Below, one piece after another: positions 50,962-56,215 of a stretch of DNA of 64,000 nucleotides. Numbering within the stretch: the stretch's first letter is position 1; the number at the start of each line of letters is the position of its first letter. The position numbers and the translations under genes were made by a program. This DNA comes from Chrysomallon squamiferum (taxonomy: Eukaryota; Animalia; Mollusca). The DNA lies in contig CM022675.1 of the NCBI GenBank assembly GCA_012295275.1, forward strand, positions 8,246,001 through 8,310,000, read 5' to 3'. The notes beneath the pieces were generated by a model that made no database searches, was not told where the DNA came from, and saw only the letters and a program-made list of their open reading frames with translations.

Positions 50962-51715
50962 ATGAAATACTTTCTTTTGTGTCTCCTCCTTTTGAAACAA
51001 CGATCTACAGGTAATGTCGTAATATTATTTTTGAATTTAAATTCAAAATATTAGAGATCTCTATCTCTGTATCTCACTACGTCAGTGTTTACCTCCCTTG
51101 GCTAAGTTTGTAAAGCTATTTATCTAGTCTCCACTGTTTTCCTCTGTCATCAACGCCTTTTACTGAGATATCTGAGGGAACATTTATATTACAGGTTCCA
51201 GTGAATACAGAACAGTCATTGCTTTTTGAATATCCTGACAATATAGAGTTTTGTTAACATCTTCCCAAACTAATATCTTAGAGTCATTGGAAAATGTTCT
51301 ATTTCTAGAATGTTTCAAGCACATTGTGTTTGTGTCTGTATCTATATAATAAACTGTATATCGATGAAAAGTGCTAGGTGGGAACACTTGTAGGATCAAT
51401 TCTGTTGCAACATTTCCCGTTTATTTACCATAGTTTGAAGGTGTTCAGAAAAGACAGATTAATAACAAGAAAGGCGCTTTATACACTGTAACAGTTTGTT
51501 CAACCTTCGTTTAATCTCTGTTTTATTTTATTTCGTTCTGTCTCTTTCATCTTCCTCTAATTGTTTTTTCGTAGATTTTCAGTACCTTGTATGTTTTTCT
51601 TCTATCTGTGCCCACCAACCCCCGGCTCTGACTTCTGTCTTCTCCTCTCTCTGTCGCATCTCTGTATCTTCTGCTACCTTTCTTCCTCCTTTTTCCATCT
51701 TAATACATCCGTTTC

Positions 51716-51799
<84 letters not shown>

Positions 51800-54700
51800 T
51801 TAATTCCTCCTTCTCATCTCTATGTCTTTTGCTACGTTTTCCCCTTCTACTTCTTTTGTCTGGAAATACTTCGATGTCCTTCTGTCTACTTCTGTCTCTA
51901 GCCCTCAACCTTCCTCCTGCTATCAAACATGTTTCACTGAAAAACAAAAAAAAAATCTTTTGCTATTTCAGTAGATGCAGCCGTTTGTTCCTGCCCTTAC
52001 ACTTTCGAAAACGGTTGTACCTATCTAATGACAAATACTGACTGCCCTTATCTTATCTGTAAAGATAAAGCTGGTCCGGGCAAAGATTGTTGTGGTTCCT
52101 GTTTCCATGGTGACAGTCTTGTTGAACTCGAAAACGGCTCGGCAATAAAAATGAAACATCTGACTGTAGGTCGAAAGGTTCTAACAGGTAAATTATTATA
52201 ATTATTAATTTTGTGATTAACTATTAAAGTTAATTGTAAAGTCGCTGTGTAACCCTTGATTAAGTAACAAACACTGGTTGTCAGTGTATGGGTCAGAGAA
52301 ACACCAGAAAAAAAAAAAAAAAAATAATAAAAATTAAAAAAAAAACATTGGCAAAACTAACCGACATCGCGAAATGATAAATACCAAATCTCAGGAGTCA
52401 GAGGGAATTCGAAAAGTCCAAATGCAGGAACCAATAACAAAATTCACTACATGTTGACAATGAAGTCAAACACAGTTACAGATGTTACATTCTTTAACGA
52501 ATTCATCACTGGAAATGACCGCAGATTTGTAATGAACAAAATCAAGGTGAAGAAGACCAGGAAAGATACAAATAGTTAAATGAAGAAGAAACTACCAAAA
52601 TAGGATCAAAGAAAATTTAAATAAACAGTTTTCCACAGAATCCTTTCGACACAATGCAAAATTGATATTCTTTGTCAAAATTTCGCAGGCATCATCCAAA
52701 AAAGAACTCAACAAACACAGCCACGAAAGAATAATCAAAGATATCGTTACCCAAACCTGGCTTTGTGAAGAAACGACAAGCCATGGTAGGATATGAAACA
52801 AAAAATAAACAATAGAACATGAGAACATTAGAAAATTATACCACGAGATCATACCATTATCGATTACAGCATGAAAGAATCTGAGTAAAGTTTGAATATG
52901 CTATACCCACTGGCTATCACAGAATACATTGCAAGGTAGAGAGAGAGTTGTAATATTTATGTGTGATTAGAAAGACGTTACACTGAATGAAATCTTCTGG
53001 AAATTGGTAATGATTATTTAGTCTCCATTAAATTTTTCTCTTTTTCAGGTTTTTCCGTTATTGCTGCTATTATTATTTTTGTGTGAGTATAAAACTGTTT
53101 CGTTAGTTGATAATATGCCATCTGGCCGAAGGACAATGCTAATGTCATGACACAGCTTTTATCAAATAATAGAAAATGTTACACACCTCCCGAATAAGTA
53201 ACAAACACTGATTATATGCTAAACTCAAAGGAAAGACACAACATCCACATAATTCATATCTCGCAAAACAAATTTAAAACAAACTAAAAACCTACATTTC
53301 TCCAAGAGACAGGAAAGAAATTAAAACATGTCCCATTCTGCATCTTTATTGCTATTTTTTGTATCGACACAGTCCAGTCGGAAAATGAACACGATTTCAC
53401 AGAAGAAGTTCAGACATGGATCAAAACGACAGATCACTTTTTTTGTATAAACCTCGGCATGTCTGAGAAAAATAAACGGCATTATTTTATTTTTTGTTTT
53501 TTCACAGGTTTCACAACAGACGCATATTTTCATTTTTTCTCTGAATAATGAAGTGAATTCGGGAATTTCTATCCATTAGGTTTTAATATCTGATATGAAC
53601 ATTTTTGTTTCTTTGCAGACAAATTAGGTGTATTTCAGAAGTTAAAATGAAACATTAACCCACTGGGTCGCTCTTTATAACTGATTATTATTTTATTAAC
53701 CCAAACTGCCCCATGGTACTTTGGTTGACACCGATCTGAAAACACACACTAAGGATTCGTGAGGTTCAAACCAAGAAAAGACAATGTTTTCTTCCCTCTA
53801 TCATTTGTTTTCTAAATTACACTTCTCGACTTAGTTTTCACAAATGTCCCACAGATATTTTTTTGATCAGTGGCAAGTAGAACTCATATGAACGTCCGAT
53901 GTCCATATTTAAACAGCTAAATGTAAACAAACGTGAACGATTAACTTTTGTCAAATAATATCTGATGTCCAATGTGGTTTATGAAACAGATTTTGTTTCC
54001 ACTTGAAACAGATTTTGTTTACTTGCTACAAATTCTGAGTATGTTTCAGAAACTTACTTCTTTGAATTTTAGAATAAGTATAGATACTCCTTTCTTGTTC
54101 GCTGATAGGCTCTACGTACTGGTGTTTTTAAAACTTAACTCTTCCTAACCTGTTCATCATTTAGTGAATAGTTCGCTTGAACTGCTTTAGATTTCACGAG
54201 AAATCATTTGGCCACTTTAATTCTTTTGCGACTGTCTCCATTTTCTACTCTATGCTGATGATACAATACTGTTAGCAGTATCACCGGATGATTTACAACA
54301 TAATATTAATATTTTTGTCAATTACAGCCCACTAAGGACGGTTAAAGTCAATAGAAAGAAAACTAAAATAACGATTTTCAATAAAGGACTATATATTTCA
54401 ATTTGGTAGACAGATTATAAATATAGTAATGTTTGATAATGTTACATGGTTACATGATCAGTATCTACAAATATGGAAAAGTAAAATGGAAACATTTCGA
54501 AAGGCTATTAATTACGAAGGTTTTCAAAAACGAATTGAAATTAGAAAATTATTTATCTGTATTGTCACAAAGGAACGGTAATGTCTTATATAAATTCAGA
54601 AACTCGAATATTAGACTTCCTACTGAAAATGGACAATGGTTTAGAAGACTGATAGAAAATAGAAAATGTCATATTTGTAATCTTGTCAAAATGAATATCA

Positions 54701-55098
54701 TTATGTATTTGAATGTACTGATCCTATGTTATTAAATGCGAGAAAAGGTAGACCAGATACATACAAGAGACATCCAAATATATCTGGATATAATAAATTG
54801 TTTAGTAGGAAATACATGTTTATATTTTAAAAGTTATGTTTATTAAGAGGAATTATATGTGAGAGAATCTGTCCTCAACGTTAAACTCCTACGAATTAAT
54901 TTTTATTTTGTTATTATTTATCTTTAATACATTCTTATCTGTACTGTCATCCTACGGTTTATGAGAATAAAGTCACTGTCATTGTCCATCAACATTTTAT
55001 GGTCACCATCATATATCCAGGTTTCTGATTCTTTACAAAGCGTTTAGTTTACATTACTGAAATTAATGTTGCTAATCTAGTTGTCGCCATCGTAATCA

Positions 55099-55178
<80 letters not shown>

Positions 55179-55744
55179 TTGTTCCTAAATTTGTACTTGT
55201 TTTAATTACTGACATTCTTTCAGTTCAAAATGGAAAACGGAAATTTACTGAAGTAAAAACTTTCATGAAACGAATACCTCTGACCAATGTCACCCATCGA
55301 ACATTTACGACAGAAAAGGGAAATGACTTTTCTGTTACAGAGGATCATCTGATATTTATGTCCAACAACAACAAAACTGCTGATATGAGAGCTGAGTGAG
55401 TATTTTATTTTCCTAGCCTGTGTGGTTGTCATTCTCAAATAACGTTCAAGAAATAAACTTACTGTTTTGTCTCTTCACTTTCATTTTATCACATTGTTCT
55501 AAAACAACAGATAAACTAACATATATAACTAATACCTCCTAGTCTATTATACCAACCCAGATATATATATATATATATATATACATACGATAATACCGAT
55601 AAAATGAAGTTAATTGATACATATTTTTTCACACTAAGGTATGCGATGTTTGTAAAACGAGGTGATTATATTTTCTCCACACTGTCGTGTCCAAGTGGTC
55701 TTTGTCCAGAGCGAGTTGTTGATATTTCCTTTTCAGAAAAACCA

Positions 55745-55785
<41 letters not shown>

Positions 55786-56215
55786 TAATAACAATAACAA
55801 TAACAATGTAGTACTAGTAGTAGATGTAGTAACAGCAGCAATTTTAATAATAATAGAAAAAATTATAGTAATAATAAAAATGGAATTGATAACATTATTG
55901 ACAATAATATTAACACAAATGGAAATAATCATTAATTCCAGTGAGTTTTATATGGTAAAATAAAATATTTAATATTTTGTTCCAGGTTTGTACGCACCAC
56001 TCACTGATACAGGAACTCTTGTTGTGGATGGAGTCTTAGCTTCCAATTACGTTTACTTTGATCACGAATTGGCACATTACTCTATGATTCTGTTCCGGTG
56101 GTTTCCTTGGTTACTGAGACCGTGGGAACAAGACGGATGGAGTCCCATTTTCAAATTCTTGATCTCCATCTCTGAAACGGTATTACCTTTCAGTGTGTTC
56201 CCAGAACATACCTAA
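50962..56215 (+). CDS. Secreted precursor, 257 aa: signal peptide + Cys-rich defensin/toxin-like peptide + Hedgehog-type Hog (Hint + SRR-like) autoprocessing domain (copy 2, complete)
   Basis: Exons 50962-51010, 51972-52187, 55224-55395, 55639-55745, 55986-56215 are all GT-AG and join into a 774-nt open frame. Hint motifs: [34 protein letters not shown] (TxxH), [32 protein letters not shown]. These are followed by [13 protein letters not shown]...[10 protein letters not shown], like the Hedgehog sterol-recognition region. Confidence 0.88.
54240..54990 (+). mobile_element. Degenerate 3' fragment of a non-LTR retrotransposon (LINE) in intron 2
   Basis: [18 protein letters not shown]...[13 protein letters not shown] (RT YADD at 54251-54262), then [18 protein letters not shown]...[16 protein letters not shown] (C-terminal Cys/His motif, frameshifted), and AATAAA with a short repeat tail at ~54967. 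Confidence 0.85.

Follow-up and report, generated by a model that had tools for sequence, protein, structure and literature searches.

What does a Hog domain release when no Hedge signalling domain stands in front of it? The question is raised by a locus in a 64,000 nt stretch of Chrysomallon squamiferum (CM022675.1), an AT-rich, microsatellite-laden piece of animal DNA that is referred to here, at its full length, as the window. At positions 50962..56215 of the plus strand, five predicted exons join into a gene, termed copy A, that encodes a predicted signal peptide, a short Cys-rich peptide and a Hog domain. Our answer is tentative and falls slightly short of an even chance: copy A would be an intact member of a multi-copy, likely gastropod, Hog family whose precursor cuts itself before Cys60 and frees a 40-residue disulfide-rich peptide that bears no cholesterol tag. 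The parts of copy A are as follows.

50962..51010, plus strand: exon 1, which holds the start codon and the larger part of the likely signal peptide, including a hydrophobic core; GT donor, phase 1
51972..52187, plus strand: exon 2, phase 1-1, with the end of the signal peptide, the entire Cys-rich peptide and Hint residues 1-29
51980..52099, plus strand: the Cys-rich peptide, 40 residues with seven Cys (extra Cys codon 52016-52018), about 4.3 kDa, isoelectric point (pI) 4.7
52100..52102, plus strand: codon of Hint Cys1, precursor residue 60, the predicted cleavage point
55224..55395, plus strand: exon 3; codon 55268-55270 gives Lys where Hedgehog has Asp46, and the TxxH motif lies at 55337-55348
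55639..55745, plus strand: exon 4, Hint, with a C-x4-C loop that is likewise present in both Gigantopelta aegis relatives described below
55986..56215, plus strand: exon 5, with the end of Hint, Asn at the Hedgehog Cys143 position (codon 56045-56047), an SRR/ARR-like tail and the stop codon

A first-pass annotation, made from the sequence alone, had proposed the five-exon join, a Hint domain, and an order of signal peptide, short Cys-rich peptide and Hog domain with no Hedge part. These proposals hold at the level of sequence, the signal peptide being a likely one. All introns are GT-AG, the phases match (1/1/2/1), and the joined exons give 774 nt, or 257 codons and a stop, with no internal stop codon. 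The Pfam Hint family PF01079 is matched in the correct order by exon 2 (profile positions 11-40, E 6.5e-5), exon 3 (45-96, E 5.8e-8) and exon 5 (140-185, E 3.2e-9); exon 4 alone has no Pfam match. Searches with the precursor, and its folding, were done exon by exon and not on the whole chain, which lowers their sensitivity. The signal peptide is predicted by inspection and hydropathy (an 8-residue core of mean 3.5). There is no Hedge domain, as just 59 residues precede Cys1 and no such Pfam match is present, and CC-G-S stands directly before Cys1. The tail extends about 55 residues past Hint and can be aligned to SHH and Hh as far as the H-x-x-A-H...R motif; in the alignment, the terminal HWY motif of Hedgehog tails is missing from copy A and from both G. 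aegis proteins. Copy A is very probably a real gene and, as judged from its sequence, is a hedgehog-related gene of the Hog-domain class and not Hedgehog proper.

Read data bear on one detail of this model. In run X1, whose library type is unrecorded and whose contigs cross intron borders, a single contig covers copy A exon 2, from which it departs at 4 of 241 bases, and just one other contig differs at the extra Cys codon; the seventh Cys is therefore unlikely to be an assembly error. Three RNA runs contain almost none of the query words; their contigs lie mostly on intron repeats, and none of the 15 joints listed coincides with an intron, which says nothing either way on expression. Intron 2 holds a decayed reverse-transcriptase fragment with a YADD-type motif (54221-54735, plus strand), presumably LINE-like, to which many contigs of all four runs map.

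Copy A has relatives in a second snail. A profile of the two last-exon copies in the window (exon 5 and the copy at 56872..57209, below) picked out five proteins from 340 candidates (E no greater than 10), namely two G. aegis proteins and three distant Hog proteins. The G. aegis proteins, XP_041356242.1 (271 aa) and XP_041379577.1 (257 aa), score E 1e-20 and 8e-20 and carry the automatic RefSeq name 'indian hedgehog protein-like'; at full length both match PF01079 at E 1e-42. Copy A exons 2-5 tile both proteins free of gaps, with exactly one residue at each junction, a line of support for the exon model that does not depend on RNA. Exon by exon, the Hog parts are 45-68% identical; for the SRR-like tail, the figure across the two species is 57%. 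Both relatives share with copy A a signal-like start, a short Cys-rich peptide that begins with C-x-C, the Hog domain, Lys at position 46, the C-x4-C loop and the same tail. They differ from it in that they keep Cys143, have Gly before Cys1, and carry basic peptides with 8 and 4 Cys at other spacings. By these sequence comparisons, the combination of Hog domain and Cys-rich peptide is present in at least two gastropod lineages. A literature search found no publication on the two G. aegis proteins. In XP_041356242.1, a basic R-R-E-R-R stretch lies between the signal peptide and the C-x-C peptide (residues 21-27), which we take to resemble the convertase site of a pro-peptide.

With exon 2 or exon 5 as a single query, no homolog among longer proteins reached E 0.001. 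A HMMER search of 1.84 billion representatives with exon 2 gave five weak matches, and the four inspected were repeat-driven and unrelated. A metagenome scan returned one locus from 196 candidates, with a Hint open reading frame of bacterial type; this frame (L001, 5893-6489, plus strand) spans about 195 residues, in which a short hydrophobic start is directly followed by a Hint-like domain, and it is unrelated to the window peptide.

Can such a Hog domain still cleave? Residues were mapped by alignment of XP_041379577.1 to 1AT0, 6TYY (the D46H variant), 6TD6 and 7E2I. Cys1 and the TxxH motif are kept in all copies seen, and therefore release by an N-S acyl shift is plausible. The position of Hedgehog Asp46 is Lys in copy A, in paralog C of the window (below) and in both G. 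aegis proteins; across 50 animal Hog domains, counted by eye in part 1 of 2 of supplementary file 1 of PMC2362128, this position is Asp in 19, His in 31 and Lys in none. The Cys143 position is Asn in both last-exon copies of the window and Cys in G. aegis. Zebrafish dhh and Trichinella hh also carry Asn143, each together with His46, so Asn143 need not be lethal.

In Hedgehog, the D46A mutant retains the thioester and is blocked in cholesterolysis (PMC9772569). Mutants D303A/N/R/E are cleaved more efficiently by dithiothreitol (PMC9163320), and a role in averting premature hydrolysis is ascribed to D303 (PMC9163320, PMC13060885). A literature search found no published test of a D46K or Lys46 variant. 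With Lys in place of the Asp46 general base and Asn in place of Cys143, cholesterol transfer is unlikely, and the earlier suggestion that the precursor lipidates itself with cholesterol is not upheld. By analogy with Hedgehog, thioester formation in copy A is likely, and cleavage before Cys1 is somewhat more probable than its failure; if cleavage does occur, there is good reason to expect that no cholesterol would be attached. The sequence of events we propose would begin with removal of the signal peptide after residue 19 from a precursor that is likely secreted. Cys1, with Thr68 and His71, would then form a thioester, as in Hedgehog chemistry. With no acid at position 46 to restrain the thioester or to deprotonate cholesterol, water or a nucleophile other than cholesterol would resolve it.

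Alternatively, the peptide may pass from the Hog domain to something other than plain cholesterol, such as an anionic sterol or lipid that pairs with Lys46, or an amine, with an anchored, cross-linked or cyclic product. A selected role is suggested by the sharing of Lys46 between the window species and both G. aegis proteins, and the 57% identity of the SRR-like tail across the two species points the same way. Precedents exist at this position in Hedgehog: carboxy-sterols rescue the D46A mutant and the wild-type Asp46 is thought to repel one (PMC13060885, PMC9772569), and His46 broadens sterol tolerance via charge stabilisation (PMC9163320). Set against these are the missing HWY motif in the window gene and G. 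aegis, the loss of Cys143 in the window lineage, and the lack of any Lys46 test in the literature found. We regard transfer to such an adduct as improbable.

Copy A is not alone in the window. It lies in a cluster that has been duplicated and inverted and that includes three partial paralogs (B, C and D), an extra last exon and a second exon-2-like cassette.

56872..57209, plus strand: second copy of the last exon, with an intact acceptor and an open frame; protein 75% identical, Asn at 143
47572..48899, minus strand: paralog B, with exon 1 (48851-48899) and exon 2 (47572-47787) and a six-Cys peptide; exons 3-5 were not found within the window
58445..60333, minus strand: paralog C, with exon 1 (60285-60333), exon 3 (58790-58961) and exon 4 (58445-58551); it lacks exon 2 and is not continued by an exon 5
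62313..63506, plus strand: paralog D, with exon 1 (62313-62361) and exon 2 (63291-63506) and a six-Cys peptide; the remainder would fall past the window
63676..63810, plus strand: second exon-2-like cassette, behind exon 2 of paralog D, with AG/GT borders, phase 1-1 and an open frame; the Hint part is diverged

The extra last exon may be a paralog remnant or an alternative last exon. Its open frame runs 36 residues longer and reaches a hydrophobic stretch, and it could provide copy A with an alternative, membrane-attached C-terminus.

The cargo ahead of the Hog domain appears to vary. The cassette at 63676..63810 encodes a different, short peptide with CC-x2-C just before Hint Cys1. In run X1, in which depth does not equate to copy number, 18 contigs lie on exon 2; their summed depth is 94-182 across the peptide; from the Cys1 codon onward it is 600-2,177, and among the eight of these 18 records that are listed, four span the peptide and four start at Cys1. 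Loose contig ends ahead of Cys1, with the frame set by eye and assumed to abut the aligned part, encode other Cys-rich ends, CC-x3-C and CC-x2-C. The cassette, these loose ends and the two unlike G. aegis peptides together indicate that several unlike peptides precede one Hog start. As exon 2 has phase 1-1, its duplication or swap would keep the reading frame.

Rates of change were compared as proportions of nonsynonymous (pN) and synonymous (pS) differences. For the peptide, comparison among copies A, B and D gives pN 0.078-0.121 vs pS 0.067-0.137; for the start of Hint, pN is 0.029-0.059. Between A and C, pN is lower than pS in exon 3 (0.023 and 0.107) and exon 4 (0.039 and 0.073). Positive selection on the peptide was considered and is not shown by either pN/pS or the contrast in variable columns given below.

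What kind of peptide is it? The first-pass annotation had read it as a six-Cys, defensin- or anemone-toxin-like peptide. The six-Cys pattern and the quoted sequence, CKDRAGPGNNCC, in fact belong to paralog B on the minus strand (47660-47779). The peptides of paralogs B and D have six Cys and that of copy A has seven, in the pattern C-x-C-x7-C-x8-C-x4-C-x9-CC, with CC-G-S abutting Hint Cys1. The comparison with defensins was based on Cys spacing alone and has no Pfam or Protein Data Bank (PDB) sequence match behind it: none of the three peptides matched a defensin or toxin family in Pfam at E up to 1 or 10, and PDB sequence searches with the peptide gave no defensin or toxin chain. Two traits of the beta-defensin fold are present, a length of 40 residues (35-50 in the fold) and adjacent last two Cys (CC-Xn, n>1). 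An AlphaFold model of the peptide has a hairpin and a short helix but is weak (pLDDT 59), and that of exon 2 (pLDDT 44) was discarded. With the weak peptide model, Foldseek gave no match at E 0.001, which excludes no defensin fold, and VIA-align gave one chain of 48,161 (Z 2.3), so that here too a missing defensin match excludes nothing. The ESM Atlas gave two leads below 0.9 for exon 2 and none for the peptide. The Cys pattern occurs five times in the window, in the three real peptides and twice in a microsatellite, and not once in 30 simulations; it was drawn post hoc, and the count adds little.

Sea-anemone peptides of the beta-defensin fold (Defensin_4, PF07936; PhcrTx2) share with the window peptides a length of about 40 residues, a C-x-C start, Cys-Pro after the third Cys and adjacent last two Cys (PMC5848173). 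The spacing there is C-x-C-x15-C-x9-C-x7-CC (PMC5848173), compared with C-x-C-x16-C-x4-C-x9-CC in the six-Cys window peptides, so that the loop between the third and fourth Cys is 9 vs 4 residues. The window peptides have no match to the Defensin_4 profile. Sea-anemone peptides are also freed by proteases, and not by a Hint domain. On present sequence evidence, an identity as defensin or anemone toxin is unsupported.

Residues 15-30 of the peptide (52022-52069) resemble 16 residues of copy A exon 4 (55667-55714) in the pattern Y-x6-C-P-x3-C. This likeness was spotted post hoc; among 2000 shuffles, its local score was reached 36 times for copy A, once for B and 8 times for D, and it may reflect chance or an old internal duplication.

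In the scheme proposed here, the freed peptide would act outside the cell, perhaps most likely in defence or against microbes, and the conserved Hog domain would be the module through which a varied set of peptides is folded and released. These are the weakest steps. Defence is suggested as the likeliest role because the cluster appears to undergo birth and death and its cargo varies; as a specific claim it is a possibility only, rather more doubtful than probable. Alternatively, the released peptide may act as a ligand in signalling or in the matrix, a role suggested for nematode proteins related to hedgehog. Known hedgehog-related families swap N-termini and have developmental or cuticle roles (PMC2362128), and the window peptides are not cationic and match no toxin or defensin family. 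On the other hand, tandem expansion, birth and death, and unlike peptides on near-identical Hog starts would resemble effector families, and the length, six Cys and terminal CC-X2 partly fit three listed beta-defensin traits (PMC5848173). A ligand role seems to us distinctly unlikely.

Several observations weigh against our proposal of an intact gene that frees a defence peptide. At the active site, copy A lacks both Asp46 and Cys143. The D46A Hedgehog precursor yielded no appreciable product in HEK293 cells (PMC9772569), and C143A and C143D abolished Hedgehog autoprocessing in cells (PMC12054796). Copy A further has an odd number of Cys, has Ser and not Gly ahead of Cys1, and has Leu where G. 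aegis and the extra last exon have the motif-K Pro. Its three neighbours are incomplete within the window. The peptides of G. aegis and the window give no significant alignment, and their homology rests on position and the C-x-C start. Variable columns number 12 of 40 in the peptide and 4 of 29 in the Hint start (p 0.15), and thus faster change of the peptide is not significant. Finally, the window peptides are acidic to neutral (pI 4.7, 4.7 and 7.8), and typical antimicrobial peptides are cationic.

Some of these points fit another explanation, that cleavage by the Hog domain has been lost, in this lineage or in this copy, with the precursor secreted whole or degraded and the cluster decaying after recent duplications. 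Asp46 and Cys143 are both gone, either loss blocks Hedgehog processing in cells (PMC12054796, PMC9772569), and Cys143 is kept by G. aegis and not by the window species. The exons missing from paralogs B and C, the unpaired Cys of copy A, and a peptide pN close to pS would also be expected. It is hard to reconcile with decay, however, that every copy seen retains Cys1 and TxxH, that the frame stays open with canonical splice sites over 5.2 kb, and that pN is below pS in Hint exons 3-4. In addition, two exon copies carry Asn143, as do true hedgehog genes. We consider loss of cleavage unlikely, and prefer release of the peptide.

How much of this is new? The first-pass annotation knew of no described family with such an architecture, and this has to be revised. 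Secreted nematode Hog proteins have N-termini of 15-34 residues or with six conserved Cys, Hog protein N-termini evolve fast, and the adduct of non-Hedgehog Hogs (cholesterol, another, or none) is stated as open (PMC2362128). The enoplean nematode proteins Ts Xhog1-3 and XC Shog1-2, similar to copy A, have a signal peptide, a 15-34 residue or six-Cys N-terminus plus the Hog domain; Ts Xhog3 of Trichinella, with a short N-terminus, has a basic residue, Arg, at position 46, comparable to Lys in copy A (PMC2362128). They differ in their N-terminal sequences and in having mostly His46, and no expanded set of defensin-sized peptides is described for them in the available portion of that paper. Among lophotrochozoans, the Lophohog family and 11 Hedgehog-related genes in a limpet have been reported, of which only two lie inside the Lophohog clade (PMC5103448, PMC9695228). 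These share with copy A a Hog domain, a non-Hedge N-terminus and expansion in a gastropod, and the window family may itself be Lophohog, or else correspond to one of the limpet groups left unnamed. An AIG-Hint fusion is known from another snail (PMC7053062). Compared with the Hedgehog C-terminal domain (1AT0, 6TYY, 6TD6, 7E2I), copy A shares the Hint sequence, Cys1, TxxH and an SRR-like tail, but is without Hedge and the HWY motif and has Lys for Asp46 and Asn for Cys143. A search of the mollusc literature for this architecture found only the Lophohog and Burglin papers relevant, and a literature search, largely without subscription papers, turned up no account of Lys46 Hog domains that carry defensin-sized, Cys-rich peptides. 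Thus a secreted short or Cys-rich N-terminus joined to Hog is a class already described; new are the conserved Lys46, the modular and varied Cys-rich cargo, and the expansion.

A bolder extension, which we rate as fairly improbable, is that gastropods maintain an expanded library of disulfide-rich effector peptides on swappable phase 1-1 exons that also carry the Hog Cys1. Lys46 would divert the Hedgehog chemistry away from cholesterol, to an adduct with an anionic lipid, to an amide link or to closure of the peptide head to tail, a self-modifying route to defensin-sized peptides in animals that dispenses with proteases. The locus provides a natural test case: a mass shift is easily read on a 40-residue cargo, and the only position known to link cleavage to sterol transfer holds a conserved Lys. 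Should the peptides prove to be effectors, they would constitute an overlooked mollusc peptide family mislabelled 'indian hedgehog-like' in databases, and the enzyme would be of interest for peptide ligation.

Other features of the window lie apart from the cluster. A long single-exon frame of the carboxylesterase/cholinesterase family (40826-42289, plus strand; E 1e-75 to acetylcholinesterase) has the nucleophile elbow G-H-A-S-G, with Ala at the usual catalytic Ser site, and its product is possibly a non-catalytic family member. A second carboxylesterase-like gene (25355-26855, plus strand), with the elbow G-Q-E-A-G, extends over three reading frames and may be a pseudogene or reflect assembly errors. 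At 18281-19242, self-matches reveal a tandem repeat with a period in multiples of about 22 bases.

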